Below, piece by piece: positions 2,683 through 22,266 of a DNA stretch of 64,000 nt (positions are counted from its first letter, which is position 1; each line of letters opens with the position of its first letter). The stretch lies in sequence record DRR723986_1321; one strand, given 5' to 3'. The position numbers and the translations under genes were made by a program. The notes beneath the pieces were generated by a model that saw only the letters and a list, made by a program, of their open reading frames with translations, was not told the DNA's origin and ran no database searches.

Positions 2683-2711
2683 CGTCCGTCCCTGGCGTGA
2701 TTTTCCCAGGG

Positions 2712-4076: not shown

Positions 4077-4100
4077 GAATGCACTCCGCTTGTTATCTCT

Positions 4101-5948: not shown

Positions 5949-5992
5949 CTACTTTCCTCCGGGGCGCGTGCGCGCAGAACTATTCTAATGCC

Positions 5993-6005
5993 GGTCAGTT
6001 TGACC
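5993..6005. promoter_or_regulatory. Candidate operator palindrome GGTCA-gtt-TGACC
   Basis: Perfect 5-3-5 inverted repeat about 45 bp upstream of the DUF1302 start, in the divergent region with putA. Confidence 0.35.
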
Positions 6006-6224
6006 AAATTTCCCCGGGCCCGACTTGCTCTCGATCAACATTTCGCGGATTTCGCCAGGGCCTGCGAACCCAGGCGCGCCGCGGCTTATGTCGCGATTAC
6101 CCGCCAGCCGTACATTCTTTCGGGGGTACAGGGAGCGTAGCCAATAACCATGAACTGTAAAGCGAGGATGCCAGCCCGGGCGCGGATGACTACAATCCAC
6201 AGTGTGCTTCACGGAAACCGGTTT

Positions 6225-9200: not shown

Positions 9201-9989
9201 GGACCCAAGGCCGGTGGGCCCGAATACCTGGCGCGCCTGGTAAGTACCGGAGAAGAAGCGGAGAACGCCGCCAACCAGCAAGCCCTGCCCGTCTGTGCCG
9301 AAGAGCAAGCGGACCCACTGGCCGGGGCACTGGCTGCGCTGCCGGCCTGGTCAGCAACGTCGCTCAACGATCGCCTGTCGGTGCTGCGTCGTTTCATCGC
9401 CCTGTATGCCGAGCGCCAGTCAGATGACAATCCGGTGATCCTGGAGACCACCCTGGCGGCGGCCCGTGCCCAGCTCAGCTACGCGGCGCAGGTTCTCGCC
9501 GAGCCACGGGAGTTACCGGGGCCGACCGGGGAGTCCAATCACTTGCTGCTGGAATCACGCGGCGCCTTGCTGACGCTGCTTGATGACAGCGCCTTTGCCG
9601 GTGAATACCTGATGGCGATCCTCTCCGCCCTGGCCGGCGGCAACGCGGTAACGGCGTTTGCTGCCGACGCGCTGTTGCAGGACTGGCAAGCCATCCAGGC
9701 TTGCCTGGAAGATGCGGGACTGCCCTCCGGCGCCTGCAGCCTGAGGCCGCTTGCACAGGCCGCCGGCTGTATTGCCAGTCCTGCTCTGGCCGGCGCCATG
9801 GTTCATGCGCGCAGCGTTCACCTGCACGCCGTGGCACAGGCACTCGCGGCCCGCCCGGGCGCCATTCTTCCCCTGATCAGCTGTGTCTCACCGCGCACCC
9901 TACTGCGCCAGACCATGCTCGAAAAGACCGTGAGTATCGATACCACCGCCGCCGGTGGCAACGCATCGCTGCTGACCATGACCATCTAG
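6225..9989 (+). CDS. putA: Bifunctional proline dehydrogenase / P5C dehydrogenase
   Basis: EGVVLMCLAEALLRVPD, SYDMLGEGA, SIKLSAIHPRY, RLVKGAYWD, FATHNA, EFQRLHGMGE, ETGGQN, SAGQRCSA and C-terminal TTAAGGNASL. Start uncertain (6150/6225/6231). Confidence 0.95.
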   Translation: MPMLTSDTLQSDDPLRRELRRFHRLNETEVLDYLIPLAEIGNAARSRSWERARKLVLEIRRRQAGKGGVDALLNEFALSTEEGVVLMCLAEALLRVPDSLTVDRLIRDKLAAGNWSSHLGNSESLFVNASAWGLLLTGKVVTYNEEHSERQFGLLRKTMGRVGEPVIRAAVRYAMQIMGTQFVIGTSVKSAVHRAREEEAKGYRYSYDMLGEGARTMAQADRHLDSYRNAIEVIGGVAAGRGPIDSPGISIKLSAIHPRYAFAQRERVMTELVPRLKSLALAAKARDIGFTVDAEEADRLDLSLDVIEAVFADPALVGWDGFGVAVQAYLRPGSHVIDWLYALCERLDRRMMVRLVKGAYWDSEIKIGQVEGHADYPVFTRKASSDVSYQACARRLLACRDRLYPQFATHNAYSVATILEMDRDRSGYEFQRLHGMGEALFDQVVQGEAVPCRIYAPVGVHADLLAYLVRRLLENGSNSSFVNNIVDEEIPVEALLEDPLEQARSWTSAPNPGIPLPRDLFGEQRLNSLGADLSDPPALDALRGAMDNWLTALPLDRRTGTGVALRIVNPADHAEHVGTVTLADEAAVELALGRAAAALPLWAASRPADRRDLLARLADKLEQHQAELIALCCKEAGKTAVDGVAEVREAVDFCRYYGARTVAEDFGAQQLRPRGVVLCISPWNFPLAIFLGQVTAALAAGNTVIAKPAEQTSLIAIRAIELLREVGLPEGVVELVIVEGPRAGELLVPDPRIKAVMFTGSTEAGHWINQRLAGRPDAPIPLVAETGGQNCMVVDSTALPEQVVDDVIASGFQSAGQRCSALRVLFLQEDIADRVIAMIIGAMRELRVGDPALLATDVGPVINHPALARLQQHTAYLEHSGRLLHACDAPAQGSGTYFPPHLYEISNLSLLEREVFGPVVHVIRYRADELDKLVEQINSLGYGLTFGVHSRIEQFTSLLAQRIQAGNIYINRNMIGAVVGAQPFGGRGLSGTGPKAGGPEYLARLVSTGEEAENAANQQALPVCAEEQADPLAGALAALPAWSATSLNDRLSVLRRFIALYAERQSDDNPVILETTLAAARAQLSYAAQVLAEPRELPGPTGESNHLLLESRGALLTLLDDSAFAGEYLMAILSALAGGNAVTAFAADALLQDWQAIQACLEDAGLPSGACSLRPLAQAAGCIASPALAGAMVHARSVHLHAVAQALAARPGAILPLISCVSPRTLLRQTMLEKTVSIDTTAAGGNASLLTMTI

Positions 9990-10107
9990 CCACAGAGCGC
10001 AATTTGGCCCACGGCAGCCTTTTTAGGCTATAGTCCTGCGCTGCCGCCATGGCCGTGCCTCGCAAGTAACGGCAATGGGATCGGTCCAGCAGACACAGGA
10101 GATCACC

Positions 10108-11331
10108 GTGTACCAGTTCAGCGATACATCACTGGCCTACCAGGCGCAGCTCACTGCTTTCATGGAAGCGCATATCTACCCGAACGAGGAGCTCCGCGCG
10201 GAGCAACTTGCCGCGGCCGAGAACCGCTTTGCCACCTTGCCGATCATCGAGGAACTGAAGACCAGGGCCCGCGAGGCCGGACTGTGGAACCTGTTCATAC
10301 CGCCGAAGCTGGCCGAGTTCGCCGAGCATGACGGGCTAAGCAATTTCGATTACGCCCCGCTGGCGGAAATCATGGGTCGCGTGCTGTGGTCACCGGAAGT
10401 CTTCAATTGCAATGCGCCCGACACCGGCAACATGGAAGTGTTCATGAAGTACGCCACCCCGGAGCAGCAGGCGCAGTGGCTGACGCCCTTGCTGGCGGGC
10501 GAGATTCGCTCCGCTTACGCGATGACCGAGCCCCAGGTGGCTTCTTCCGATGCGACCAATATCGAACTCAGCATCCGCCAGGACGGCGATGAGTGGGTGC
10601 TTAACGGCCGCAAGTGGTTTATCACTGGCGCCATGTTCGAGCGCACCAAAATCTTTATCGTCATGGGCAAGTCGGACCCGGACAATCCCAATCGCCACAA
10701 GCAGCAAAGCCAGGTGCTGGTGCCTCGCGACGCCCCGGGAGTGACCCTGGTGCGACCGCTGACTACCCTGGGTTATGACGATGCTCCCCAGGGGCACGCC
10801 GAGATGCACTTTGACAATGTACGGGTGCCGCTGGAGAACATCCTGCTGGGCGAGGGTCGTGGCTTTGAAATCGCCCAGGGCAGACTTGGCCCGGGCCGTA
10901 TGCATCACTGTATGCGCCTGATCGGCGCGGCACAGCGCTCACTGGAACTGGCCTGCAAGCGGGTAACCGAGCGCTCCACCTTTGGCCGCAGCCTGGCCCA
11001 GCACCAGTCCGTGCGTGAGGACATGGCAAAATGCTTCGCGGAAATTGAAATGATGCGACTGCTGGTGCTGAAGGCCTGCCACCGTATGGACGAGGTTGGC
11101 GCCCAGGAAGCCCGCGACATGATCGCCGCCGCCAAGATCAGCGTACCGTTGATGGCCCAGACAGTCATCGACCGCTGCATGCAGGTGCACGGCGCGGGTG
11201 GCCTGACCGAAGACTATTGCATGGCGGAAGCCTTCAACTACGCGCGCTGGTGTCGCCAGGCAGACGGTCCGGACCAGGTCCACCAGATGGCCCTCGGCAA
11301 GCAGGTCATCAACCGCTACGCCGAGGACTGA
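10108..11331 (+). CDS. Acyl-CoA dehydrogenase, ACAD10/ACAD11/LvaC-type clade
   Basis: NCNAPDTGNMEV, AMTEPQVASSDATN, GRLGPGRMHHCMRLIG and ADGPDQVH motifs. GTG start after CAGGAG. Confidence 0.85.
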   Translation: MYQFSDTSLAYQAQLTAFMEAHIYPNEELRAEQLAAAENRFATLPIIEELKTRAREAGLWNLFIPPKLAEFAEHDGLSNFDYAPLAEIMGRVLWSPEVFNCNAPDTGNMEVFMKYATPEQQAQWLTPLLAGEIRSAYAMTEPQVASSDATNIELSIRQDGDEWVLNGRKWFITGAMFERTKIFIVMGKSDPDNPNRHKQQSQVLVPRDAPGVTLVRPLTTLGYDDAPQGHAEMHFDNVRVPLENILLGEGRGFEIAQGRLGPGRMHHCMRLIGAAQRSLELACKRVTERSTFGRSLAQHQSVREDMAKCFAEIEMMRLLVLKACHRMDEVGAQEARDMIAAAKISVPLMAQTVIDRCMQVHGAGGLTEDYCMAEAFNYARWCRQADGPDQVHQMALGKQVINRYAED

Positions 11332-11344
11332 GGCAGCAATCGGT

Positions 11345-12868
11345 TCACCGGGGGGCGTCGGTAGCGATGATCTCGATGCCCGCCAGCTTCTCCGCGTAGG
11401 ATTTTTTGCGCTCGATTTCCATGCCGCGCAGAATCTGGATGCGCTGGGCCTGGGGTGAACCTGCCCCGTGCAGGGATTCGGTGAGGTAGCCCACGGCATT
11501 GCGCCCCAGGGTCATATTTTCAATCAGGCGCAACATGCGCACCCGCTTCTCCACCGGAATATCGGGCCTGCCCTGCAGGTACTTCGCCAGCAGCGGCCCG
11601 GTCTCCTCGTGCTCCATATCGGCCTGGGACGGTAAGGTCACCATCAGTCCTCCCGCCAGGTCCTGGGCAAAGCGTGCGATTTCGTAGGGAAAGCGGGTGA
11701 CATTGTGCTTGCACACATTGGCCAGCATCTCGTCGTTCATGTAAATCCCCGAGTCCAGTTGCTGCGCTTCATGGGATGAGGCGATACCCGAGGAATAAAT
11801 CGTTTCGTTCAGGTGCGTCATTTCGACCAGCTTGTCCTTGATGTGGCTGGCCTTATCGGCGCCGTTGTACTCGGCAATCGCTGCCGCGGCACCGACCATC
11901 ACGTCACCCAGGCCGGTCTTACACACGTAGCTGGCGCGGTGATACGCCGTGAAGCGCGCCACCATCGGCTGGGCGAATTCATACTCACCGTCCATCAGTA
12001 CGTGCTCCCAGGGAATGAACACCTCGTCGAACACCACCAGCACTTCCTGACCACCATACCGGGCATTGCCCGCATCGATGTCACCGGGCTCCAGCGCGCG
12101 GGTATCGCAGGACTGGCGTCCATAGATATAGGTAATCCCCTGCGCGTCCGCCGGCACCAACCCTACCACCGCGTAATCCCGGTCCTGCTCCAGCATGTTC
12201 ATGGTGGGCATGACACAGATCCAGTGTGAATTGAGCCCGCCGGTCATGTGCGCCTTCGCGCCCTTGACGTACAAACCCTGCTCCGTGCGCCGGGTCACAT
12301 GCAGGAACATGTCGGGATCATCCTGCTCGTGGGGCCGACGTGCGCGATCGCCCTTGGGGTCGGTCATGCCGGCGCCGATAATCACGTTGTTACGCTGGGC
12401 GTGGCGCATGAACTCAAGGTAACGCTGGTGATACTCGGTGCCGTGCTGCTGGTCGATGTCATAGGTAATCGAGTGCAGGACGCTGATAGTGTCCAGCCCG
12501 GCACAGCGCTGGAAACAGGTGCCCGTGATCTGGCCCATACGGCGCTGCATACGGTTCTTCATCACCAGATCCTGCGGGGAGCCGACGATATGCAGGAAGC
12601 GGTTGACCGGGGCGTCGATCAAGGCCGAGTGCGCAGTGGCCAGCTCGGGGTCCTCAACCGCCAGGTCGTAGCTCGCCTTGAGCGCGTTGATCGAGGGCCT
12701 GATGATCGGGTGATCCACCGGTTCTTCAACTCGCTCACCCAAGAGGTAGACCAGCAGTCCGCGTCCGCGCAGGCTCGCGACATAGTCGTCGCCATCCTTG
12801 ATCGGGCTGAAGCGGCTCCAGCGCTGCGCCGCGGTCTCTTCACGCGAGGTCGGGGTGATGGCATTCAT
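11345..12868 (-). CDS. abfD: 4-hydroxybutyryl-CoA dehydratase / vinylacetyl-CoA isomerase-like (AbfD; HpaB-family fold)
   Basis: TGTCFQRCAGLD (two Cys) and YHRASYVCKTG (His + Cys) match the [4Fe-4S] ligand pattern; also MTDPKGDR, GAKAHMTG and HGAGSPQAQR. Confidence 0.8.
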   Translation of the reverse strand: MNAITPTSREETAAQRWSRFSPIKDGDDYVASLRGRGLLVYLLGERVEEPVDHPIIRPSINALKASYDLAVEDPELATAHSALIDAPVNRFLHIVGSPQDLVMKNRMQRRMGQITGTCFQRCAGLDTISVLHSITYDIDQQHGTEYHQRYLEFMRHAQRNNVIIGAGMTDPKGDRARRPHEQDDPDMFLHVTRRTEQGLYVKGAKAHMTGGLNSHWICVMPTMNMLEQDRDYAVVGLVPADAQGITYIYGRQSCDTRALEPGDIDAGNARYGGQEVLVVFDEVFIPWEHVLMDGEYEFAQPMVARFTAYHRASYVCKTGLGDVMVGAAAAIAEYNGADKASHIKDKLVEMTHLNETIYSSGIASSHEAQQLDSGIYMNDEMLANVCKHNVTRFPYEIARFAQDLAGGLMVTLPSQADMEHEETGPLLAKYLQGRPDIPVEKRVRMLRLIENMTLGRNAVGYLTESLHGAGSPQAQRIQILRGMEIERKKSYAEKLAGIEIIATDAPR

Positions 12869-12972
12869 CGTCGTGTTCCTCTGATCTGGGCTCTCGGGAT
12901 AATAACACCTCGAAAGCGTGCTGCGACGAATGGTAAGCTCTGCACCCCGAAATCGCAGAGCTGAGGCTTTCC

Positions 12973-13839
12973 ATGACCGGCGACTATTCCTGTCTCGAGT
13001 ACGAGCTGCAAGATCACATTCTCACTATCCGGCTGAACCGCCCTGAACGCATGAATGCGTTCACCACACCCATGGCAATGGAGCTGGTATCGCTGCTGGA
13101 CGCCGCCGACGCAGACGATGCCGTGCGGGTGATCGTGGTGACCGGCAACGGCCGCGGCTTTTGTGCCGGCGCCGACCTCGGTGGCGGTGGCAGCACCTTC
13201 GACTACGACACCGGAACGGATGGCAGTGCGGACGCCGCGCCAAGGGACACAGGGGGCCTGGTAAGCCTGCGTATTTTCCAGAGCAAGAAACCCGTTATCG
13301 GCGCGATCAATGGCGCGGCGGTCGGCATTGGCGCCACCATGACCTTGCCCATGGACATTCGGCTGGCCTCGGAGAAGGCCCGCTTCGGTTTTGTTTTCGC
13401 CCGCCGCGGCATCGTACCCGAGGCGGCCTCCAGCTGGTTCCTGCCGCGCGTGGTCGGCATCAGCCAGGCCATGGAATGGTGCCTGCGCGGCCATGTCTTC
13501 GATGCCCAGGAAGCGCTGGCCGGCGGCCTGGTCAAGGCGGTCTACCCCGAGGACGAGCTGTTGCCCGCCGCGTACGCACTGGCCCGGGAGATCGCCGACA
13601 ATGCAGCGCCGGTATCCGTTGCCCTCACCCGCCAGATGCTGTGGCGCATGCTATCGGCCGATCACCCCATGGACGCACACAAGATCGACTCCCGCGGTGT
13701 CTACTATCGCGGCAAGCAGGCTGATGCGAAAGAAGGCGTGGAATCGTTTCTGGAAAAGCGGCCGGCGCGCTTCACCGACAAGCCGAGCACCGACATGCCC
13801 GACTTTTACCCCTGGTGGGAAGAGCCGGAGTATTCCTAG
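12973..13839 (+). CDS. Crotonase / enoyl-CoA hydratase family protein
   Basis: LNRPERMNAF, FCAGADL, KPVIGAINGAAVGIG and GIVPEAASSWFLPR motifs. Confidence 0.9.
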   Translation: MTGDYSCLEYELQDHILTIRLNRPERMNAFTTPMAMELVSLLDAADADDAVRVIVVTGNGRGFCAGADLGGGGSTFDYDTGTDGSADAAPRDTGGLVSLRIFQSKKPVIGAINGAAVGIGATMTLPMDIRLASEKARFGFVFARRGIVPEAASSWFLPRVVGISQAMEWCLRGHVFDAQEALAGGLVKAVYPEDELLPAAYALAREIADNAAPVSVALTRQMLWRMLSADHPMDAHKIDSRGVYYRGKQADAKEGVESFLEKRPARFTDKPSTDMPDFYPWWEEPEYS

Positions 13840-13848
13840 AGTCGACTG

Positions 13849-14847
13849 TCAGAAGCTGAACTGGTCCGGCGTCACCGCGGAGAGGGTTCGCATGGCGCTT
13901 TCCGGGTCGGCGGCAAGCGGCGCGATGATGTGAGTATGAACTCCGCCCTCGGCATCTTCACGCAGGCGCTGCTGCACTTCCTCGGCCGTGCCGATGATAG
14001 CGATTTCGTCCACCAGTTCGTCACTGAGCGCCGCTGCCGTCTTCTCCCTGTCGCGTTGGGCCCAACCCTCACTGACCTGGCTGGCGGCGTCACCGTACCC
14101 GGCCCAGGCCAGGAAGGCGTTATAAACCGGGGTTGCGTAGTAGGGCCCGAAGGCCGCGCGAAACAACTCGCGACCGGCGGCCTTGTCATCGGTGACCAGG
14201 ACCATCGCCCGGTTGACGATTTCCACCTCACGCCAGTCCTTGCCCGCGCGTTCAGCGCCAATTTTCACATGCTCCATCATCTTCGGCAGCGCGCCTTGCG
14301 GCCACAGGTTGAAGATCACTCCGTCACCAACCTCCGCGGCCATTTCGATCATCTTTGAGCGCAGCGCGGCGAGATAAATCGGCGGCGGATTGTCGCAGGG
14401 TGCCTGGCGATAGCCTTTGCTCGACAGCGTCTCCAGGTCGAAGTCGCTCTTTTCACCCTTGAGCATCGAGCGGACCATGATGGCAGTCTCCCGCACGCGG
14501 GTCAGTGGCTGTTCCAGCGGGATGCCATTCCACTGGCCCATGATGGTCTGGCTGGAGGAGCCAAGGCCGAGCACAAAGCGCCCCGGCAAAACCTGGCTGA
14601 TCGCCTCTGCGGTAGCGGCAAGCACCGCCGGGGTCCGGGTGTAGACCGGGGTCACCGCAACACCCAGGCGCATGGACCGGGTGTGATGCGCGAGCGCCGC
14701 TATCGAGGTCAGGCTGTCCGGGGCACCGGCATCGCTGAACCAGCCGTCGGTGATACCGTTGTCCTCGGCCCAGCGAATCAGGGCGGCCGTATGCTCCAGC
14801 CTGGGGCCGCCGGGCAGCGTCACGGCGATGCGCTTGTTATGGCTCAT
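13849..14847 (-). CDS. LLM-class (luciferase-like) flavin-dependent oxidoreductase
   Basis: RLGVAVTPVYTRTP, GRFVLGLGSS and PIYLAAL..KMIEMAAEVGDG motifs. Confidence 0.85.
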   Translation of the reverse strand: MSHNKRIAVTLPGGPRLEHTAALIRWAEDNGITDGWFSDAGAPDSLTSIAALAHHTRSMRLGVAVTPVYTRTPAVLAATAEAISQVLPGRFVLGLGSSSQTIMGQWNGIPLEQPLTRVRETAIMVRSMLKGEKSDFDLETLSSKGYRQAPCDNPPPIYLAALRSKMIEMAAEVGDGVIFNLWPQGALPKMMEHVKIGAERAGKDWREVEIVNRAMVLVTDDKAAGRELFRAAFGPYYATPVYNAFLAWAGYGDAASQVSEGWAQRDREKTAAALSDELVDEIAIIGTAEEVQQRLREDAEGGVHTHIIAPLAADPESAMRTLSAVTPDQFSF

Positions 14848-14870
14848 ACGGTTCTCCCTGTCAGTGCCGG

Positions 14871-16031
14871 TCAGTCCAGCAGGCTACTGTACTCGTCGGT
14901 GAAGATTTCCCGGCCGATCACATACTTCATGATCTCGTTACTGCCAGCCAGGATGCGGTTGATACGCGCCCCGGTAAACATCTCGCTGATCGGATACTCC
15001 GACATATAGCCAGCGCCGCCGTGCAGCTGTACGCCCAGGTCCATCATCTTCCACTCTACTTCGGTGGAGAGCAGCTTCGCCTTGGCCGCCATGTTGGCGT
15101 TAAGCCGACCCTCGTTGTGCTCGTAGACGCAGTGGTCGACATAGGTTTGCACCAGCTCGATCTCGGCATCCATTTCCGCCATCTTGAACTGCGTGTTCTG
15201 CATCGCCGACAGGGGCTTGCCAAATACCTTGCGCTGCATGACAAAGTCCCGGGTGATATCGAACGCCTTGCGCGCGTGGGCGGTCGAGCCGACCCCGACG
15301 ATGAGCCGCTCCTCGGCCAGGCCGTGCATGAGATAGGCGAAGCCCTGTCCCACCTCGCCGAGCACGTTTTCCTTGGGGATGATCACATCGTTGAAAAACA
15401 GTTCCGCTGTGTCCTGGGCGTGGCCACCCATTTTGTCCAGGTTGCGCCCACGTTCGAAGCCGTCCATGCCGCGCTCGACAACAACCAGGGTGACCGCATA
15501 GGGACTGTTCTCAGGATCGTTCTTGGCAGCGACGATTACCACGTCGGCGTTGATACCATTGGAAATATAGGTCTTGGCACCGTTGAGAACGAAATGATCG
15601 CCCTTGTCGACAAGATTACTGCGCATCCCTGACAGGTCGCTGCCCGCATCGGGCTCGGTCATCGCCACCGCGAGAATGGTTTCCCCTGCCACGCAGGAGG
15701 GCAACCAGCGCTGCTTCTGTTCTTCGGTACCCAGCTTTTCAAAATACGGGCCGATAAGGCGGCTGTGCAGGGTGTTACCCCAACCGGCAACGCCGGCGCG
15801 CACCGATTCTTCGATGATGATCTGCTCGTAGCGGAAGTCGTTGTCACCCAGGCCGCCGTATTTCTCTTCCGGCCAGATCATCAGGAAACCCTGCTCCCCG
15901 GCCTTGCGGAAAATGTCCCGGTCCACAATGCCCTGTTCGCTGTAGCGCGCCATGTGAGGCTGCACTTCCGCCTCCAGGAACTTGCGGTAGGACTGGCGAA
16001 ACATCTGCTGTTCTTCGGTGAAAACTCTCAT
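14871..16031 (-). CDS. Acyl-CoA dehydrogenase (LCAD-like)
   Basis: AMTEPDAGSDL, NGAKTYISNG, QDTAELFF, LAEERL and QLHGGAGYM motifs. Confidence 0.9.
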   Translation of the reverse strand: MRVFTEEQQMFRQSYRKFLEAEVQPHMARYSEQGIVDRDIFRKAGEQGFLMIWPEEKYGGLGDNDFRYEQIIIEESVRAGVAGWGNTLHSRLIGPYFEKLGTEEQKQRWLPSCVAGETILAVAMTEPDAGSDLSGMRSNLVDKGDHFVLNGAKTYISNGINADVVIVAAKNDPENSPYAVTLVVVERGMDGFERGRNLDKMGGHAQDTAELFFNDVIIPKENVLGEVGQGFAYLMHGLAEERLIVGVGSTAHARKAFDITRDFVMQRKVFGKPLSAMQNTQFKMAEMDAEIELVQTYVDHCVYEHNEGRLNANMAAKAKLLSTEVEWKMMDLGVQLHGGAGYMSEYPISEMFTGARINRILAGSNEIMKYVIGREIFTDEYSSLLD

Positions 16032-16148
16032 CCGGGGAAACTCCGTTGCGTCTGGTTAATCGCCAGCATAGTGGGATGGATAACGAAGCCGATCAATGAC
16101 CGCGCCGCTTAAAAAAATTGACCCGGCGCGACAGCCCGGCGAGCCGGT

Positions 16149-17426
16149 TCAGCCCCGGCCGCCCTTGATGAAGCCGAACAGGGTTCCGGCGATCTTGCGC
16201 AGCTGGATTTCATCAGAGCCCTCGGTGATCCGGTAGCGGCGGTGATGCCGGTAATGGTGCTCGAACTGCTTGTAGCGGGAGTAGCCAATACCACCGTGAA
16301 CCTGGATTGCCGCGTCCGCCGCATCGCAGGCCAGCTGGTTGGCGCGGTAATTACAGATGGCGACCTTGTCCGACAGCCGCTGGGCGACATCCCGTTTGCT
16401 CATCCCGTCCATTTCCGCCGCCACCTGGAAGGTGAGCGCCTTGATCAGTTCGTAGTCTGCATGAAGCTCGGCCAGCTTGAACTGGATCGACTGATTGACC
16501 GACAGGGGCTTGCCGAAGGTCGTGCGCTGGTTTGCGTAGTCTACCGACTCACTGATGCAGTAACGCGCCGTGCCCAGGCTGGAGGCAGCCTGGCGGATAC
16601 GGTTTTCATGGACAAAATGCTGGGCCACGGCCAGGCCCATGCCCTCTTCCCCGAGAATCGCGTCAGCGGGCAGCCAGACGTCCGTCAGCGATACCCGGGG
16701 ATGGTCGGTAGGCATATTGAAGGTCCACAGCCATTCCTCGATCCGGAACCCGTCACAGCCATTGGGCATGACGAAACAGGTAATACCGCGAGCGCTGCCG
16801 TCCTCGCCCGCGGTGCGAGCGAAGATCAGGATGTGGGAAGCCAGATGAGCGCCGGTGGTCCACATCTTCTCGCCATTGAGACGCCAGCCCGCCACCCCGT
16901 CACGGGTTTCCGCTACCGCGCGGGTTTTCATCCAGGTGGCATCGGACCCGTGCTCCGGCTCGGTCAGACCGAAGCCGACGCCGATAGTGCCGGCGATACT
17001 GCCGGGAATAAAGGCATCCTTCTGCGCCTGGCTGCCAAAGTCGCGGAACGCCAGGGTGGTGGGAAAATTCCCGACGATGCTGTGTTCGTTCTGCAGATCG
17101 CAATGCAGGCCGATGCCCCGGGCCGCGAGGTGCTCACGCACCACCGCCATCTCCAGGTTACTGGCGTCGCCGCCGCCGTACTCCGCCGGCAGCGCGAATC
17201 CAAGGAAGCCGGCTTCTCGCGACAGTTCCCGCGCCTGCCGCAACAGATCCTCCCAATCCTCTGCCGGAAGACCGTCGCGCTCCCAGTCCGTGCGGCTGTA
17301 CTCCCGGCGATGGTCGAAGAACCGCCGGTTGTCGTCCGCGGCCTCCAGGGGCGCCAGCTTCTCATCGATGAACGCGTCGAGGCTCGCCAGGAAGGCGGGA
17401 ATATGGTCGGGAATCAACAGGCTCAT
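16149..17426 (-). CDS. Acyl-CoA dehydrogenase family protein
   Basis: FGLTEPEHGSDA, NGEKMWTTG, QVHGGIGY and RYRITEGSDEIQ motifs; overlaps the upstream gene by 4 bp. Confidence 0.88.
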   Translation of the reverse strand: MSLLIPDHIPAFLASLDAFIDEKLAPLEAADDNRRFFDHRREYSRTDWERDGLPAEDWEDLLRQARELSREAGFLGFALPAEYGGGDASNLEMAVVREHLAARGIGLHCDLQNEHSIVGNFPTTLAFRDFGSQAQKDAFIPGSIAGTIGVGFGLTEPEHGSDATWMKTRAVAETRDGVAGWRLNGEKMWTTGAHLASHILIFARTAGEDGSARGITCFVMPNGCDGFRIEEWLWTFNMPTDHPRVSLTDVWLPADAILGEEGMGLAVAQHFVHENRIRQAASSLGTARYCISESVDYANQRTTFGKPLSVNQSIQFKLAELHADYELIKALTFQVAAEMDGMSKRDVAQRLSDKVAICNYRANQLACDAADAAIQVHGGIGYSRYKQFEHHYRHHRRYRITEGSDEIQLRKIAGTLFGFIKGGRG

Positions 17427-17818
17427 GGCGTGTCCTTACTGTCGTCGCCTGGATACCAGCGCCGGGTGGCGAGCAGGTAGCCGGAATAGCGTGGGTTGTC
17501 TATGGCGATCGCCTGGTACGCGCGGCGCTGGAGGAAGCCCACCAGCTCTGCGTCCGGCGCCACGGTGCCATCACGCAGCGCGCGGGCCAGTTGCGCGGCG
17601 ACCGCACCCTCCCCGGGATCCAGCCCGTAGCGTTCGGCGATCTCGGCGTCCAGCGCCACCAGCTCCTGACCCTGGGCCAGCTCCCGCGCCACAATCGCAA
17701 GGTTATTCGCGGCAACCCGCGTGCTGTAGGCCTGGAAGCCGTCCAGCTCCGGCAGCAGGACCTCGCGCAGAAACGCGCGGGTTGCGGCCAGCAATTCATC
17801 TGCGTCAGTGCCACTCAT
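17423..17818 (-). CDS. DUF6285-like small partner of a phosphotransferase (LvaB-like)
   Basis: 131 aa helical protein with ELLAATRAFLREVLLP, RVAANNLAIVARE and AIDNPRY; sits directly after an APH kinase gene. Confidence 0.7.
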   Translation of the reverse strand: MSGTDADELLAATRAFLREVLLPELDGFQAYSTRVAANNLAIVARELAQGQELVALDAEIAERYGLDPGEGAVAAQLARALRDGTVAPDAELVGFLQRRAYQAIAIDNPRYSGYLLATRRWYPGDDSKDTP

Positions 17819-17819
17819 C

Positions 17820-18842
17820 TCATTGTGCTCCTGTCGCGATCGCCAGCTTGCCTTCCAGCAGCAGCATCAGGTCGATTTCGGATTCTGACAGACGACGCCC
17901 TACCGCCGCCCGCTCCAGCGAGGTGTCGCTGCCGGAGCGATACATGGCCAGCATGGTCAGGCACACCAGGCCCCATCCCAGGGCCGTATAGATTTCCCAG
18001 TACAGCACTTCGTCGAGCTCCGGCGCCCAGCCAGTCACTGACCGGTAACCATCCAGCAGCTGGGTGTAGTCGCCAAAACCGCCAACCGGTTTGTCGACCC
18101 GGCCAAAGCGCCAGACGTTACCGCAGATGTAGCCGAGGTCCTCCACCGGACTGCCGACATGTGCCAGCTCCCAGTCCAGCACCGCGACCAGGCCGCGCTC
18201 GTCCACCAGCAGGTTGCCGTTGCGGAAATCACCGTGCACCAGGCTGGCCTGGCGCTCGGCGGGCTGGTTGTCGCGCAGCCAGTTCAGCGCCAGCTGGTGC
18301 ACCGGGGAGACGTTACCGTACTGATCCAGCAGATCCTGGTTGCGCGCCAGCTGGCCGTCGATAGACAGGGCCGGCAGACCGGGCGGCAATTCTTCCAGCG
18401 GGATGGCGTGTATCCTGGCCAGCGCTTCACCGCACTGGAACGCCAACCGCTCCCGGGCGCTGGCGTACTGTTCATCCCCGAGGATCCTGAAGGGCAGTGC
18501 CTCGCCCTGTTTGCGGGTCATCACATAGCCGCGACCCAGGCCATCTGCGGGTTCAAGTACCCGGATGACCGCGGGCACCGGTACCCGGTTGCGCTGGGCG
18601 ACCGATACCAGGCTTGCCTCGGTTTCCAGGCCGAACTGGCTGACCAGGTCCTCCTCGCTGGCCATGGCGGGCAAGCGGCGCAGGATCAGCGGTCGCGCGT
18701 GGCCATCGGCAACCAGGTCGAAGGACCAGGTCTCCATATTGGCACCACCCGAGAGACGCCGCAGTCCTTCGATCCGGCTGTCGGGCCCTGCTGCCAGCAC
18801 AGCGCACAGCCCGGAGGCCATCTCGTTCAGGACATCACTCAT
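17820..18842 (-). CDS. APH/phosphotransferase family kinase (LvaA-like)
   Basis: RLSGGANMETW, LVHGDFRNGNLL and VLDWELAH kinase motifs; C-terminal ERAAVGRRLSESE. Confidence 0.85.
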   Translation of the reverse strand: MSDVLNEMASGLCAVLAAGPDSRIEGLRRLSGGANMETWSFDLVADGHARPLILRRLPAMASEEDLVSQFGLETEASLVSVAQRNRVPVPAVIRVLEPADGLGRGYVMTRKQGEALPFRILGDEQYASARERLAFQCGEALARIHAIPLEELPPGLPALSIDGQLARNQDLLDQYGNVSPVHQLALNWLRDNQPAERQASLVHGDFRNGNLLVDERGLVAVLDWELAHVGSPVEDLGYICGNVWRFGRVDKPVGGFGDYTQLLDGYRSVTGWAPELDEVLYWEIYTALGWGLVCLTMLAMYRSGSDTSLERAAVGRRLSESEIDLMLLLEGKLAIATGAQ

Positions 18843-18866
18843 GGGGCTGCCCTCTCAGCAAGGCGC

Positions 18867-20390
18867 TCATTGGAATTCAAACAGGTTGGTTTTCTCGCCG
18901 GGCGTCACCTTGCCTGTTCGACCTACTGCATCCTCGCCGACCAGTGACTGCAGCAACTCGGGATCCTTGCGGGTATGAGCGACAAACCGTTTGCCGTCGT
19001 CGAGACGACCGACCACCAGCGCGCCGCTGGGAGCACCTTGCTCATAGCGCACGGCGTGCGCCTCGATCACCCCATGACCAGCCGGGCTTGCGTCCAGCTC
19101 CGGGTGCGGCAGAGCGTCCAGTTCCGGCTGCGGGCTAACCCGCCGGGACGGATCCCAGGCTACGCCCGACGCCTCGGTAGAATACACACCGACCGCGTGT
19201 TTGGTGAGATAACCGCCGTTCGCAGTGACCAGACCTGTGCCACGCCGCTCACGCAGGCGGCTGGCCATTTCGGCAATGGCGTGCAGGCTGTAGTTATTGC
19301 CGGGACCACCGAACAGGGTCAGCCCGCCGGTGACAGTCAGCCCCCGCGGGTCATCCACCGCGAGCCCGAGGGCATCACAGGCAACCTGGACCGCCGCCGG
19401 GAAGCAGCTGTAGATATCGAACAGGTCAATCTCGTCGAGGCTCAGCCCGGCCATCGCCAGGGCTTGCGGCCCGATCCGCGCCAGCGCCGGGGAACTGTGG
19501 AAGTCGACCCGCTCGCTCACATAATCCACGTCGTGGGCTTCGGCGCCCCCCCGCAGGTAAACCAGCTGCGACTCCTCGATACCCAGCTCCCGGGCATGGC
19601 CCGCCGTGGTCATCACCACTGCGGCCGCCATGTCGACCGCCAGGATCGAATTCATGACCTTGGTATACGGGTATACGATCATCCGGTTGCCGTCGTCGGT
19701 GCTCAGCACATCCTCCACACTCACCTTGCGTTGGCGCCAGGCGTGGGGATTAGCGGCCGCGACCTCGCTCATCCGGCTGACAATACCGGCGATCAGTGCG
19801 TTGTGGGCAACGCCGTCCAGACCCTTGTGATGGCGCAGCGCGCTCTCGAACAGGGGATAGGTGTTAATCGGTTCAAACAGGCCGTGAGCACGCTCGGTCG
19901 CATAGCTCATGTCCTTGCCCTCACCGAGAATGTCGGCGGTTCGCGCACCCCCGACAGTCCAGCCGGAAATATCCTTACCGCCGCGCAGGGCGTCAAACAG
20001 GGTCGCCAGCAACTCGCTGCCGCAGATCATTACCGCCCGGCACTGCCCCGCTGCGAGGCGGTCGGCAAAGCGATTGACGAAAAACTGCGGCAGGCTACCA
20101 CCGACGTCAGCGCTGTACAGTTGCGCCTTCAGGCCCAGGCGATCTGCCAGCAGCGCGCCGGGGTTGGCCGGCATCAGGCCCGCCATATCCTTCACCTGGC
20201 TGGCGAGGAACGGCACCGTGACCACGGTATCAATCGCAGCGGCCAGGCCGGGAGCACCCGCATCCGCCAGCGCCAGGCGGGCCGCAGCCTCCATCGCGTC
20301 CACCGGGGTGCGCGCGGGATCGCGGTCACGAAAAGTCTCTTGTCCCACGGCCACAAGGACTGGGCTGTTATCGGTCATAAATCCTTCCAT
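18867..20390 (-). CDS. Thiolase-like protein (TLP1-type 'acetyl-CoA acetyltransferase')
   Basis: YPLFESALR, DIYSCFP, TGGLTLFGGPGNNYSLHA and ANGGYLTKH motifs, plus an extra C-terminal domain. Confidence 0.8.
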   Translation of the reverse strand: MEGFMTDNSPVLVAVGQETFRDRDPARTPVDAMEAAARLALADAGAPGLAAAIDTVVTVPFLASQVKDMAGLMPANPGALLADRLGLKAQLYSADVGGSLPQFFVNRFADRLAAGQCRAVMICGSELLATLFDALRGGKDISGWTVGGARTADILGEGKDMSYATERAHGLFEPINTYPLFESALRHHKGLDGVAHNALIAGIVSRMSEVAAANPHAWRQRKVSVEDVLSTDDGNRMIVYPYTKVMNSILAVDMAAAVVMTTAGHARELGIEESQLVYLRGGAEAHDVDYVSERVDFHSSPALARIGPQALAMAGLSLDEIDLFDIYSCFPAAVQVACDALGLAVDDPRGLTVTGGLTLFGGPGNNYSLHAIAEMASRLRERRGTGLVTANGGYLTKHAVGVYSTEASGVAWDPSRRVSPQPELDALPHPELDASPAGHGVIEAHAVRYEQGAPSGALVVGRLDDGKRFVAHTRKDPELLQSLVGEDAVGRTGKVTPGEKTNLFEFQ

Positions 20391-20535
20391 TCTGGTTTAC
20401 CAGGGCGCGCAGAGTGCGCGCGGCGCGGATGCGGCCTCTGCGAGCAAACCCCGGATTCTGTCCAATCGGGCTGCTAAAATCAATTTAACCGGGACCGCAG
20501 GTCCCGCAAACGATCACTGGACGGGAGCATAGGGT

Positions 20536-21519
20536 ATGCGGGCAATGGTGTTTCACGGAACCGGCAAGCCCCTGGCGCTGACGGAGCTACCAGACCCCAG
20601 CCCGGGGCCCGAGCAGGTGCTGATCAAGGTCGGCGCCTGCGGCATCTGCCGCACCGATCTGCACGTCATCGATGCCGACCTCCCGGACCCGGTGCTGCCG
20701 CTGGTACCCGGGCACCAGATCGTCGGCACTATCGAAGCACTGGGTGATGGCGTTACCGGATTCCGCGTGGGCCAGCGCATCGGCGTACCCTGGCTGGGGG
20801 GCAGCTGCGGACACTGCTGGTTCTGCCGGCACGAGCGGGAGAATCTCTGCGACGAGGCGCGCTACACCGGCTACCAGGTCAACGGCGGCTTTGCCGAGTA
20901 CACCGTGGCAGACGCCGGCTACTGTTTCCCGATACCCGAAGGCTACTCCGACCTGCAGGCAGCACCGCTGCTCTGCGCGGGCCTGATCGGCTACCGCTCC
21001 TACCGGCTGGTAGAAGATTGCGACAGCATCGCCCTGTACGGCTTCGGTGCGGCAGCCCACCTGCTAATCCAGGTCGCGCGCTATCGCAAGCAGCGGGTGG
21101 TGGCCTTTACCCGGCCAGGCGACCGGGAGGCGCAGGCCTTTGCCCGCCAGCTGGGCGCTGACTGGGCGGGAGATTCCGGGGACGAACCCCCGGGCCGCAT
21201 TGATGGTGCAATCATCTTCGCGCCCGCCGGCGAACTGGTGCCCGAGGCACTGCGCCGGGTGCGCAAGGGCGGTCGCGTGGTCTGCGCGGGTATTCACATG
21301 ACGCCGATACCGAGTTTTTCCTACGATCTGCTGTGGGGGGAACGGGAGCTGGTGTCGGTAGCCAACCTGACCCGCCGGGATGGTGAGGAATTCCTGCCCC
21401 TGGCAGCCCGGATACCGATCGAGACCACCGTCCACCGCTACCCGCTGGAACAGGCGAACGAGGCGCTGGAGGATCTGCGCAAGGGGCGCTTTACCGGCGC
21501 CGCCGTATTGGTGCCCTGA
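20536..21519 (+). CDS. Zinc-dependent alcohol dehydrogenase (MDR family)
   Basis: GICRTDLH, PGHQIVG, structural Zn CGHCWFC..C and APLLCAG motifs. Confidence 0.92.
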   Translation: MRAMVFHGTGKPLALTELPDPSPGPEQVLIKVGACGICRTDLHVIDADLPDPVLPLVPGHQIVGTIEALGDGVTGFRVGQRIGVPWLGGSCGHCWFCRHERENLCDEARYTGYQVNGGFAEYTVADAGYCFPIPEGYSDLQAAPLLCAGLIGYRSYRLVEDCDSIALYGFGAAAHLLIQVARYRKQRVVAFTRPGDREAQAFARQLGADWAGDSGDEPPGRIDGAIIFAPAGELVPEALRRVRKGGRVVCAGIHMTPIPSFSYDLLWGERELVSVANLTRRDGEEFLPLAARIPIETTVHRYPLEQANEALEDLRKGRFTGAAVLVP

Positions 21520-21542: not shown

Positions 21543-22256
21543 TCAGAACAGCTCTGCCAGGAAGTTCTGCAGGCTTTGCCATGAACGGCGTTCCGCATCG
21601 GCGTTGTACATGGTGCCCATCACCGGATCGTTGGCCTGCGGGTTGGTGAACGCGTGCTGGGTATTGCCGTAGGCGTGTACCTGCCAGTCAGCACCCGCGG
21701 CACTGAGTTCCGTCGCCAGGGCCAGCAGGCTGTCCGGCTGCGCCATGGGGTCGTCGTAACCGTGCAGACACAGGACCCGCGCGCTGATGGGCTGCGGCGT
21801 GCTGTCACCCGGCGGATTGAACAGGCCATGGAAAGACACCACGCCCAGGACATCGCTGCCGGAGCGCGCCAGGTCCAGCACGCACAAGCCGCCGAAGCAG
21901 TAACCCATGGCGGCCACGCGCCCGGCATCCACTTCCGGCTGCTGCCGCAGCACCTCCACCGCGCGGTTGATCCGCCGCTGCAGCAGGCTGCGGTCCTCCA
22001 CCAGCGGGGTCATCAGCGCCGTGTTCTCCTCCACGCTGCTGCCACGCACGCCCTTGCCATACATATCAATGGCAAAGCCGACATAGCCGAGCTCGGCCAG
22101 GGCGTGCGCCCTGCCCTGTTCAAATTCACCGCGTCCGGCCCAGGTGTGCGAGATGGCTACCGCAGGGGCGGCAGCGACGCTGTCGTCCCAGGCCAGGTAG
22201 CCTTCCAGCACGACCCCGTCACAATCGTATTCGACCAGTCTCGTCTGAATCGCCAT
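21543..22256 (-). CDS. Dienelactone hydrolase family protein
   Basis: GYCFGG nucleophile motif, HGYDDP and HAFTNP. Start MAIQTRL at 22256 after GAGGAG. Confidence 0.9.
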   Translation of the reverse strand: MAIQTRLVEYDCDGVVLEGYLAWDDSVAAAPAVAISHTWAGRGEFEQGRAHALAELGYVGFAIDMYGKGVRGSSVEENTALMTPLVEDRSLLQRRINRAVEVLRQQPEVDAGRVAAMGYCFGGLCVLDLARSGSDVLGVVSFHGLFNPPGDSTPQPISARVLCLHGYDDPMAQPDSLLALATELSAAGADWQVHAYGNTQHAFTNPQANDPVMGTMYNADAERRSWQSLQNFLAELF

Positions 22257-22266
22257 ACCCGTCTCC

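Follow-up and report, generated by a model that had tools for sequence, protein, structure and literature searches.

The stretch analyzed here (the window) comprises 64,000 nucleotides of DNA from a Halieaceae-type marine gammaproteobacterium, and its acyl-CoA gene cluster, with context genes, contains the following features:

6150..9989, plus strand: putA, bifunctional proline dehydrogenase / glutamate semialdehyde dehydrogenase, a context gene (NCBIfam NF008869, 1438 bits)
10075..11331, plus strand: ACAD10/ACAD11/LvaC-type acyl-CoA dehydrogenase-family protein, P0005 (APDTGN, HHCMR and ADGPD motifs)
11345..12868, minus strand: 4-hydroxybutyryl-CoA dehydratase / vinylacetyl-CoA isomerase (AbfD/4HBD), P0001 (HpaB_N and HpaB_C)
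12973..13839, plus strand: enoyl-CoA hydratase (crotonase), P0008 (PF00378, E 5.5e-54; NF006109, 455.8 bits, cut-off 320)
13849..14847, minus strand: luciferase-like oxidoreductase (LLM), P0009 (PF00296, E 5.1e-62; TIGR03841, 210.4 bits, slightly below its cut-off of 213.65)
14871..16031, minus strand: ordinary acyl-CoA dehydrogenase, ACAD_B, P0006 (Pfam ACAD N, M and C domains)
16149..17426, minus strand: class-A ACAD, P0004 (Glu-type; travels with the kinase and DUF6285 genes)
17423..17818, minus strand: DUF6285 protein, P0003 (PF19802, E 3.7e-18)
17820..18842, minus strand: APH-family small-molecule kinase, P0002 (PF01636, E 5.1e-31)
18867..20390, minus strand: thiolase-like protein type 1 (TLP1), P0007 (PF18313 and PF22691; PDB 4egv, E 8.3e-85)
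20536..21519, plus strand: Zn-dependent alcohol dehydrogenase family protein, Zn-ADH (TIGR02822, 323 bits, cut-off 283.5)
21543..22343, minus strand: dienelactone-hydrolase family protein (DLH), a context gene (PF01738, E 4.7e-41)
22267..23451, minus strand: acetyl-CoA C-acetyltransferase (thiolase), a context gene (NF005077, 599.3 bits, cut-off 590)

Every gene and motif listed in a first-pass annotation of this DNA was recovered at its position by ORF, Pfam and NCBIfam analyses. Judging from strands and gene spacing, the region forms at least four transcription units, not a single operon. Between putA and the ACAD10/11-type gene downstream lie 85 nt, and the monocistronic AbfD gene is convergent with the latter (13 nt apart) and divergent from the crotonase gene (104 nt between); TLP1 opens the minus-strand operon, LLM closes it, and the Zn-ADH gene is divergent from TLP1. 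Within 6-26 kb of the cluster there was no CoA ligase/transferase, transporter or dedicated regulator. Since the convergent ACAD/AbfD junction (11038-11707) is spanned by a 670-nt contig of the public run X1 with 3 differing letters, it is not obviously an assembly artefact, though X1 may be the window's own source.

The AbfD homologue is credible as a 4-hydroxybutyryl-CoA dehydratase. Its PDB matches were 6vjr (E 1.3e-226) and 1u8v (E 1.2e-164), versus 3.5e-35 at best for HpaB monooxygenases, and both sets of cluster ligands were intact as first reported, CFQRC at residues 118-122 and H310-x5-C316. Equivalents of T194 and E260 were also conserved, and the seven residues that constrict the tunnel in the oxygen-tolerant Nitrosopumilus maritimus enzyme were all kept. 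The tunnel residues place P0001 with the oxygen-tolerant enzymes of Nitrosopumilus type rather than with the oxygen-sensitive clostridial ones. The first-pass annotation had described this gene as an oxygen-sensitive entry to beta-oxidation, possibly separated by oxygen level from a parallel kinase-dependent entry; the retained tunnel residues contradict the description, and the proposed split fails because the dehydratase is of the oxygen-tolerant type. The GC3 of the gene (0.80) resembles that of its neighbors (0.75-0.80) and its closest relatives are from Halieaceae, which fits relocation inside the lineage, with nothing to suggest foreign DNA.

P0005 matched mouse ACAD11 (PDB 8v3u) with an E-value of 2.8e-115. 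The ACAD10/11/LvaC signature includes the residues that bind the 4-phosphate, R626, H634 and R637 (PMC12440821). P0005 keeps equivalents of all three (GRLGPGRMHHCMR) together with the catalytic Asp (ADGPD), and on this basis it is a presumed 4-phosphoacyl-CoA phosphate eliminase. Its earlier designation as LvaC-like thus stands as to residues (4/4), but the gene lies outside the kinase operon. P0005 is not the ACAD that adjoins the kinase: the two are 6.5 kb apart on opposite strands, with six genes between. Orthologues of P0005 adjoin putA and crotonase genes (in genome G431) or an SDR gene (G003-G005) and lack a kinase; among its orthologues and paralogues in G001-G005, 3/15 matches have a kinase next door. 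The crotonase orthologue in G431 (80% identity) directly follows the ACAD10/11-type gene. In the alignment, Ala replaces the usual catalytic Glu of ACAD_B, and its helix motif GLAEERL holds a Glu, a pattern that may be IVD/LCAD-like; ACAD_B has an 89% orthologue in G431.

The order of APH kinase followed by DUF6285 gene was confirmed, with a 1-nt gap, and the DUF6285 gene overlaps the start of the class-A ACAD gene by 4 nt, so that translational coupling links the kinase and DUF6285 to this ACAD. The kinase motifs HGDxRxGN and DWE were invariant across 21 aligned sequences. DUF6285, whose predicted model was all-helical (pLDDT 88.4) and which occurs naturally fused to the kinase in nine relatives, is the presumed small kinase subunit, LvaB-like by position and size. 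The kinase itself is distant from ACAD10/11-type kinases. Its matches to 3dxp (E 5.9e-11) and, over the catalytic core alone, to the ACAD11 kinase domain (E 1e-6) are weak, versus 1.2e-45 and 2.9e-36, respectively, for a DUF6285-less kinase of Halieaceae, and the DUF6285-partnered clade separated from ACAD10/11-type kinases with 100/100 support. Nevertheless, kinases of the DUF6285 clade directly adjoin Asp-type ACADs with the ACAD10/11 signature in four loci. Locus L130, in the unrelated gammaproteobacterium G390, is a full Lva-like cluster, in which a kinase and DUF6285 pair 45% identical to that of the window is accompanied by an Asp-type ACAD, two SDRs, a CoA-transferase, a crotonase and an ACAD_B 55% identical to the window's. 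By analogy with such loci, an Lva-like role of the window kinase is plausible.

The ACAD directly coupled to the kinase is of another clade. P0004 retains an ordinary catalytic Glu (ITEGSDEIQ), has no equivalents of R626, H634 and R637, and belongs to a separate, unnamed clade (SH-aLRT 99) with the specific motifs QHFVHENRIRQAASSLG, FEHHYRHHRRYR and LQNEHSIVGN. The earlier likening to LvaA/LvaB holds for a kinase with a small coupled partner but not for its ACAD. The kinase, DUF6285 and class-A ACAD genes were adjacent in all ten Halieaceae loci examined (G001-G005, G444, G526, G557, G495 and G573), and the order TLP1-APH-DUF6285-ACAD_A recurred in five genomes (G002, G526, G557, G495 and G573). 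Elsewhere, in a 401-genome sample of the class, the three genes stood together in 3/15 other DUF6285 loci; a kinase was adjacent in 4/6 class-A matches, and the other two had none within 1.5 kb. The literature searched held no biochemical data on class-A ACADs or DUF6285, and no mention of DUF6285 was found.

These properties raise the prospect that the three-gene module is unrelated to 4-hydroxyacyl-CoA. The kinase would then phosphorylate a different hydroxylated molecule, either a CoA ester or a lipid, the class-A ACAD would be an ordinary dehydrogenase of that pathway, the ACAD10/11-type gene would be served by a kinase encoded elsewhere, and the cluster would amount to generic beta-oxidation genes that happen to be neighbors. 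The normal catalytic Glu of P0004, its lack of the three phosphate-binding residues, the distance of the kinase from that of ACAD11, the two class-A ACADs without a nearby kinase and the mostly kinase-less surroundings of ACAD10/11-type genes are all as this reading would have them. So is locus L138, where a DUF6285-partnered kinase lies beside a non-ACAD DUF7064/DUF7065 partner, which indicates that the kinase clade is not bound to a single substrate. However, the same clade adjoins Asp-type ACADs in the four loci above, and the class-A ACAD carries a conserved cluster of additional basic residues near the catalytic Glu and on the substrate helix (YRHHRRYR, QHFVHENRIR), which might favor an anionic (phospho) substrate. 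Considering both sides, we regard this explanation as improbable.

The annotation had proposed two co-clustered 4-hydroxyacyl-CoA routes, and at the level of individual genes this was supported. At the level of the locus it was not, as the kinase belongs to a clade apart and the linkage to abfD is not conserved. Neither DUF6285 nor an ACAD10/11-type gene was found near AbfD in any of 80 related AbfD loci (identities 66-91%, including a 91% Halioglobus locus; full 10 kb on both sides in 47/80). A single locus (L050) had an APH gene near AbfD, of the DUF6285-less kind, and the commonest neighbor family within 4 kb occurred in only 12/80, so that in relatives AbfD mostly stands by itself, and its neighbors vary. 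Nor was the window's arrangement seen among 201 Halieaceae genomes in a DNA search limited to two scored candidates per genome. G431, the nearest genome by synteny, shares, in unchanged order, putA (70%), the ACAD11-like gene (80%), the crotonase, ACAD_B, TLP1 (62%), DLH, thiolase (91%), decarboxylase and AsnC, with AbfD absent from between the ACAD11-like and crotonase genes. Relative to G431, the window has AbfD, LLM and Zn-ADH as extra gene-sized segments (LLM and Zn-ADH had no counterparts at the corresponding place), and an FkbM methyltransferase gene in G431 occupies the place of the kinase, DUF6285 and class-A ACAD genes. The change may instead have run in the opposite direction, by gene loss in G431. 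DLH orthologues (63-76%) adjoin TLP1 in G431, G002, G526, G557, G495 and G573.

It is conceivable, though doubtful, that the cluster is an island dedicated to the catabolism of gamma-hydroxy acids and lactones, its two parallel chemistries having been selected together, with the radical dehydratase handling C4 and the kinase and eliminase handling C5 and longer substrates. Both enzyme types are credible and intact, their genes meet at the X1-bridged junction, and the DLH and Zn-ADH genes lie close by; in the Lva-like cluster of G390, moreover, the same kinase clade, ACAD_B and crotonase work with an Asp-type ACAD. Paquay et al. proposed that the ACAD10 reaction passes through a transient 2,4-dienoyl-CoA (PMC11342911). 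Since such a route would need a C5 hydrogen, C4 substrates would fall outside it, and the dehydratase would then complement the kinase. Against an island stand the failure to find the arrangement in the 80 related AbfD loci and, within the limited DNA search, in the 201 Halieaceae genomes, and the fact that one adjacency among 406 AbfD homologues is about what chance would give in genomes with 34-58 ACAD candidates each. The genes are also spread over four transcription units without a CoA-activating enzyme, transporter or regulator, the DLH gene is syntenic in relatives lacking AbfD, and the oxygen-level split does not hold.

We therefore favor, by a little better than even judgment, the reading that the acyl-CoA catabolic genes of these 10 kb form a mosaic specific to one lineage rather than a conserved two-route operon; its parts are of known kinds. 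The mosaic would consist of an inherited backbone in common with G431 (putA, ACAD10/11-LvaC-type eliminase, crotonase, ACAD_B ... TLP1, DLH, thiolase), a conserved operon core (APH kinase, DUF6285 and class-A ACAD), and a solitary dehydratase gene of the oxygen-tolerant type, placed between eliminase and crotonase genes that are neighbors in G431. The analysis establishes gene identities, signature residues, clades and synteny, whereas the substrates, the ACAD that takes the kinase product and any co-regulation are inferred; the likely chemistry is as follows. The two-subunit kinase would phosphorylate a hydroxyacyl-CoA, most likely one of C5 or longer with its hydroxyl at position 4, and the phospho-ester would be converted to 2-enoyl-CoA by the class-A ACAD, the Asp-type ACAD or both, with beta-oxidation continued by the crotonase, ACAD_B and thiolases. 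Independently, the dehydratase would convert 4-hydroxybutyryl-CoA to crotonyl-CoA, which the neighboring crotonase could hydrate. The kinase-coupled Glu-type ACAD is a more interesting item than the co-clustering of two routes.

The position of the dehydratase gene counts against a mosaic. It lies exactly between those of a presumed 2-enoyl-CoA-forming enzyme acting on 4-substituted acyl-CoAs and of the crotonase, with which it shares the 104-nt divergent region. This placement looks purposeful, and recent selection in a single genome is possible; the closest relatives of the window may lie outside the sampled genomes.

Comparison with known systems shows both likeness and difference. The window AbfD has the two-domain HpaB-like architecture, the CxxxC and H...C cluster ligands and the T194 and E260 equivalents of the 4HBD of N. 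maritimus (6VJR) and AbfD of Clostridium aminobutyricum (1U8V), and aligns with 6VJR gap-free across 477 residues (756 bits). Unlike these enzymes, it is bacterial and heterotrophic, stands outside a CO2-fixation cycle or GABA fermentation operon, and has no adjoining gene for a 4-hydroxybutyrate CoA-transferase, CoA-ligase or dehydrogenase. P0005 shares the catalytic Asp and phosphate-binding residues of the mammalian ACAD10/ACAD11 ACAD domain, Pseudomonas putida LvaC and the Burkholderia pseudomallei orthologue (PMC12440821, PMC11342911), but has no kinase, fused or adjacent. In the lva operon of P. putida, LvaA/LvaB is the 4-hydroxyvaleryl-CoA kinase (Rand et al. 2017, as cited in PMC6692424, PMC12440821 and PMC11342911). 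The window pair resembles it in gene layout: the APH-family kinase keeps its catalytic motif intact, and its gene is directly followed by that of a small coupled partner (~14 kDa). Kinases of the same clade elsewhere lie beside Asp-type ACADs, SDRs and a CoA-transferase. The window pair differs in that the ACAD directly coupled to it is Glu-type and belongs to another clade, and in that its cluster has no LvaD-type SDR or LvaE-type ligase. With ACAD10/11-type kinases (8V3U/8V3V; Ralstonia eutropha 3DXP) it has the APH fold in common despite weak sequence similarity, the model of a fused kinase-DUF6285 relative matching 3dxp best (Z 25.3, rmsd 3.3 Å, 308 residues). The 25-hydroxysteroid kinase of Sterolibacterium denitrificans (PDB 9FSG) acts on a steroid, versus the acyl-CoA context here, and the window lacks a DUF7064/DUF7065-type partner, seen only in L138. 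However, 9FSG is likewise APH-type (structural Z 22.3; sequence E 6.4e-7 with P0002), and it activates an unreactive hydroxyl for later elimination.

Genes between 6 and 26 kb of the window were mapped from ORFs and from Pfam and NCBIfam matches. Every gene that the first-pass annotation had listed is found on this map, so its description holds gene by gene:

6150-9989, + strand: putA
10075-11331, + strand: acyl-CoA dehydrogenase (ACAD) P0005, Asp-type
11345-12868, - strand: AbfD-like gene P0001, of the 4-hydroxybutyryl-CoA dehydratase (4HBD) type
12973-13839, + strand: crotonase P0008
13849-14847, - strand: luciferase-like oxidoreductase (LLM) P0009; TIGR03841 (F420-dependent subfamily) 210.4 bits, cut-off 213.65
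14871-16031, - strand: ACAD_B, P0006
16149-17426, - strand: ACAD_A, P0004, class A (Glu-type)
17423-17818, - strand: DUF6285 protein P0003
17820-18842, - strand: APH kinase P0002
18867-20390, - strand: thiolase-like protein TLP1, P0007
20536-21519, + strand: Zn-ADH
21543-22343, - strand: dienelactone-hydrolase family protein (DLH)
22267-23451, - strand: thiolase
23552-25480, - strand: Orn/Lys/Arg decarboxylase
25578-26033, + strand: AsnC regulator

The G+C content of the window is ~62%, the closest relatives of its AbfD lie in Halioglobus and Haliea genomes (85-91% identity), and its DNA is present in marine plankton metagenomes; by sequence, its source is a Halieaceae-type marine gammaproteobacterium. 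Strand and spacing predict at least four transcription units across the cluster: putA with the P0005 ACAD (gap 85 nt); AbfD by itself, with 13 nt separating its stop from that of the convergent P0005 and 104 nt separating it from the divergent crotonase; the crotonase by itself; and a minus-strand unit of TLP1, APH kinase, DUF6285, ACAD_A, ACAD_B and LLM, with successive gaps of 24, 1, -4, 117 and 23 nt. A promoter and terminator scan of 9900-20700 gave counts no higher than those of shuffled sequence (2 vs. a mean of 2.2, and 7 vs. 6.4). The junction between P0005 and AbfD is bridged by a 670-nt contig from run X1 (11038-11707, 3 differing letters), which may be the window's own source sample. 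A 209-aa ORF at 12865-13494 (- strand) was rejected as a gene, having no Pfam or NCBIfam match and overlapping the opposite-strand crotonase gene. The F420-subfamily score of the LLM gene (13849-14847) is unexpected for a gammaproteobacterium. Elsewhere in the window, two further adjoining ACAD-family genes (38085-40452), which bring the total to five, stand beside an amidohydrolase (36371-38080); a DUF1329/DUF1302 outer-membrane pair (2712-5948) lies upstream of putA; a sortase-domain protein (30309-31109; PF04203, E 6.4e-25) occurs in this Gram-negative genome; and a DUF2064 protein (41971-42681) is found near a radical-SAM/DUF3641 protein (43258-44217), the two spanning 41971-44217.

Comparison with the closest syntenic Halieaceae genome, G431, showed much of this order to be shared. 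In window order, G431 carries putA (70%), the ACAD10/11-type gene (80%), crotonase (80%), ACAD_B (89%), an FkbM methyltransferase, TLP1 (62%), DLH (76%), thiolase (91%), decarboxylase (73%) and AsnC (72%), and the methyltransferase stands where the window has its kinase-DUF6285-ACAD_A block. In the DNA comparison, AbfD, LLM and Zn-ADH each stand out as a segment of gene size that only the window has, by gain or by loss, and the window query found no AbfD in G431 or in a second relative, G444. On balance, we favor the view that the cluster is a lineage-specific mosaic, in which a putA/eliminase/crotonase/ACAD_B backbone was inherited and combined with a kinase-DUF6285-ACAD_A core and a solitary AbfD gene.

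The AbfD-like protein has HpaB_N plus HpaB_C architecture (PF11794, E 1.9e-84; PF03241, E 2.3e-70) and is nearer to proven dehydratases (6vjr, 756 bits; 1u8v, 552 bits) than to the best monooxygenase (125 bits). The Clostridium aminobutyricum AbfD (1U8V) aligns with it at E 1.2e-164, whereas HpaB-type monooxygenases reach 3.5e-35 at best. Its motifs C118-FQR-C122 and H310-x5-C316 line up with their counterparts in 6vjr and 1u8v; a CxxxC followed by a later His and Cys is what we take to be the [4Fe-4S] ligand set of 4HBD (1U8V). The catalytic residues T194 and E260, in N. maritimus numbering (bioRxiv 10.1101/2020.02.05.935528), correspond to T209 and E275, an offset read from a gap-free alignment. 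The oxygen tolerance of 6VJR has been ascribed to residues closing two tunnels, L77, T102, Q237, G257, G258, R441, and N442 (bioRxiv 10.1101/2020.02.05.935528), and P0001 keeps all seven (L92, T117, Q252, G272, G273, R456, and N457). P0001 is therefore predicted to be of the oxygen-tolerant 4HBD subtype, and the 'oxygen-sensitive' route proposed in the first-pass annotation is not a likely description of it, since the tunnel-closing residues of the oxygen-tolerant N. maritimus enzyme are retained 7/7. Relatives of P0001 are encoded in 406 stretches of species-representative genomes, the best 80 of which belong to Halieaceae, sphingomonads, Alcanivoracaceae, Acetobacteraceae and Burkholderiales; judging from these, aerobic proteobacteria commonly encode close relatives. 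Oxygen-tolerant 4HBDs are usually discussed in the context of archaeal CO2 fixation, but enzymes of this predicted type appear to be widespread in aerobic proteobacteria.

The claim that an AbfD route and an Lva-like route are co-clustered as a selected dual-route locus was examined by synteny. Both enzyme types are indeed present with intact signatures; however, their linkage is not conserved, as none of 80 related AbfD loci (47 with a full 10 kb on both sides) has a DUF6285 or ACAD10/11-type gene. An APH gene is near AbfD in one of the 80 (L050) and is of the kind without DUF6285. Neighbors were unrelated in the eight Pfam-annotated AbfD loci, and a fixed AbfD partner in aerobes was ruled out, the commonest neighbor family within 4 kb being found at only 12 of 80 loci. 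A DNA search of 201 Halieaceae genomes with 9990-20400 matched the ACAD10/11-type gene, AbfD, ACAD_B and the ACAD_A-DUF6285-APH block separately, and of the 150 matches listed none spans AbfD and a neighbor; the negative is a weak one, because two candidates were scored per genome and 296 matches lie outside those listed. The adjacency of AbfD to the Lva-like set is thus a single event in one lineage, and with hundreds of AbfD homologues and 34-58 ACAD candidates per genome, chance would roughly account for one adjacency picked by scanning. Since the adjacency is a single event and about what chance allows, we regard a selected dual-route locus as possible but rather doubtful, and rank the mosaic above it. 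If true, the dual-route locus would neatly exemplify a division of labor by chain length, based on a single genome.

Some AbfD loci have companions of another kind. Among loci from Burkholderiales and others, L026, L027, L040, and L049 have LLM plus thiolase downstream of AbfD, L065 has LLM alone, and in L027, which was Pfam-annotated, AbfD and LLM are separated by an AMP-binding ligase. These loci may represent a recurring operon.

P0005, the Asp-type ACAD, aligns with mouse ACAD11 at E 2.8e-115. Its catalytic Asp lies in ADGPD, aligned to LADGPDEVH of 8v3u (Asn in the mutant 8v3v). Rashan et al. (PMC12440821) showed that R626, H634, and R637 bind the 4-phosphate, and the equivalents of these residues in P0005 lie on one helix, GRLGPGRMHHCMR. 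By these features P0005 is of the ACAD10/11/LvaC kind. A fused or adjacent kinase is expected for ACADs of that type, whereas the nearest kinase gene to P0005 is 6.5 kb away on the opposite strand; thus, although the APDTGN/HHCMR/ADGPD motifs were read correctly, the gene bearing them is not kinase-coupled. Its orthologues in G003-G005 and G431 likewise have no adjoining kinase. Halieaceae genomes carry 2-4 ACAD10/11-type paralogues each (15 matches at E ≤ 1e-60 in five genomes, G001-G005), and an APH gene is next door in 3 of the 15, all of the ~37%-identity class; one such kinase, in G002, is clearly of ACAD10/11 type (3dxp, E 1.2e-45; ACAD11, E 2.9e-36). Since most of these paralogues are without an adjacent kinase, kinase-orphan eliminases are the rule in G001-G005.

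P0002, the window's own kinase, has the APH fold (PF01636) with the D220/N225 equivalents of ACAD11 intact, and its H203-G-D205-x-R-x-G-N210 and D223-W-E225 motifs are invariant across 21 sequences. Its match to the ACAD11 kinase domain is limited to the catalytic core (E 1e-6, residues 105-239), 3DXP is distant (E 5.9e-11), and P0002 does not resemble either over its full length; a Halieaceae kinase without DUF6285 is far closer to ACAD11 and 3dxp (2.9e-36 and 1.2e-45). A tree of 32 APH sequences, all from loci fetched for this analysis, placed the 26 kinases with a downstream DUF6285 gene or domain in one clade (100/100), with the six others outside it. Hence P0002 does not group with ACAD10/11-type kinases; it belongs to a separate clade with 100/100 support and weak similarity to them. 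Neither P0002 nor P0003 is matched by an NCBIfam model.

P0003 (131 aa, 1 nt downstream of the kinase) has the position and size expected of an LvaB-like partner. In nine relatives (L092, L093, L094, L095, L156, L129, L131, L117, and L141) kinase and DUF6285 form a single ORF of 455-475 aa, and a tenth case, L132, has a stop inside the match; these Rosetta-stone fusions are evidence that the two proteins would act together. A model of the fused G001 protein (pLDDT 82.9, pTM 0.82) matched 3dxp best in its kinase part (Z 25.3), followed by Rv3168, homoserine kinase and the 25-hydroxysteroid kinase 9fsg (Z 22.3), while its DUF6285 part was covered by none of the structural matches listed. DUF6285 alone gave a confident all-helical model (pLDDT 88.4), for which Foldseek found no match at E ≤ 0.001. 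By sequence, solved structures gave nothing better than E 0.55, an ESM Atlas search returned DUF6285 clusters only, and a literature search found no mention of DUF6285.

The third member of the module, the class-A ACAD P0004, has a start that overlaps the DUF6285 stop. It keeps the usual catalytic Glu (ITEGSDEIQ) and lacks the phosphate-binding feature of ACAD10/11/LvaC, because F, Q, and S replace R626, H634, and R637 of ACAD11. P0004 belongs to a separate clade (SH-aLRT 99) with conserved basic motifs peculiar to it, QHF(V/F)(H/N)ENRIRQAASSLG and FEH(H/I)YRHHRRYRITEG. Among the best 120 of 7999 matches, class-A ACADs are named only 'acyl-CoA dehydrogenase (family protein)' or 'acyl-CoA/acyl-ACP dehydrogenase' in their sources. 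Kinase, DUF6285 and class-A ACAD are adjacent in 10/10 Halieaceae loci examined: G002, G526, G557, G495, and G573 have the order decarboxylase/(thiolase)/DLH/TLP1/APH/DUF6285/ACAD_A/second thiolase; G444 has APH (69%)/DUF6285/ACAD_A (85%) alone; and in G001 and G003-G005 a fused APH-DUF6285 comes after an ACAD_A paralogue. Class-wide, class-A ACADs occurred in 6 of 400 sampled genomes, four with the kinase adjacent, and DUF6285 in 13 of 401 sampled gammaproteobacterial genomes, in varied contexts:

Context of the 15 class-wide DUF6285 loci other than that of G001
Class-A ACAD adjacent: 3/15
Asp-type ACAD with ACAD10/11 signature adjacent: 4/15
Asp-type ACAD within 5 kb (L130): 1/15
No adjacent ACAD (one with two DUF7064/DUF7065 proteins instead): 5/15
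Too short to tell: 2/15

Locus L130 (G390, 1729-9298) has SDR/APH (45% to P0002)/DUF6285 on one strand and, on the other, divergent strand, SDR/crotonase/ACAD_B-like (55%)/CoA-transferase III/Asp-type ACAD and a glyoxalase-family gene; by gene content it is a compact, full Lva-like cluster. At L138 (G134, 9470-12543), two DUF7064/DUF7065 proteins precede the DUF6285-partnered kinase, followed by crotonase and ACAD; these proteins seem to be a third partner type of the kinase clade.

The DUF6285-partnered kinases would have at least two kinds of phospho-eliminating partner. Paired with Asp-type ACADs, they would repeat the LvaA/LvaB/LvaC logic, and an Lva-like route in the window, from 4-hydroxyacyl-CoA through 4-phosphoacyl-CoA to 2-enoyl-CoA, is plausible because kinase, crotonase, ACAD_B and Asp-type ACAD are all there, as in G390. 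The class-A ACAD, the regular companion of the kinase in Halieaceae, probably takes the kinase product, alone or as well, and a phosphate group would be well accommodated by the extra His/Arg residues that surround its catalytic Glu. For the dehydratase, conversion of 4-hydroxybutyryl-CoA to crotonyl-CoA in air is expected. A transient 2,4-dienoyl-CoA has been proposed for the ACAD10 reaction by Paquay et al. (PMC11342911); if this is right, the kinase route would need a C5 hydrogen and could not serve C4, and the two chemistries would have complementary ranges. A bolder reading, which we put forward only tentatively, is that kinase, DUF6285 and class-A ACAD make up a second, as yet undescribed kinase-coupled ACAD lineage, which would dehydrate hydroxyacyl-CoAs by way of a phospho-intermediate, with a Glu base and its own basic residues. 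Here it would share one island with an LvaC-type eliminase and an oxygen-tolerant radical dehydratase, the whole set handling 4-hydroxyacyl-CoAs from C4 upward under air.

How 4-hydroxy fatty acids enter beta-oxidation became clear only recently, through the Pseudomonas lva operon and, in 2024-2025, mammalian ACAD10/11 (PMC12440821, PMC11342911). Literature searches found no description of the DUF6285-partnered kinase clade, of a class-A ACAD traveling with it, or of an AbfD and Lva-like pairing. A search for bacterial 4-hydroxyacyl-CoA kinase plus ACAD gave, among the matches listed, only the ACAD10/11 work and an ACAD10 ether-lipid preprint, and one joining 4-hydroxybutyryl-CoA dehydratase with levulin- gave unrelated matches only. 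Should the Glu-type ACAD that accompanies a DUF6285-partnered kinase have this same function, phosphorylate-then-eliminate chemistry would have emerged or branched more than once among ACADs and would be common in marine heterotrophs feeding on oxidized lipids. Each part of the cluster is of a known type or a variant of one, namely an oxygen-tolerant 4HBD, an ACAD10/11/LvaC-type eliminase and an LvaAB-like two-part kinase; however, the operon partner of the LvaA/LvaB kinase is an Asp-type ACAD, whereas P0002 and P0003 are coupled to a Glu-type ACAD.
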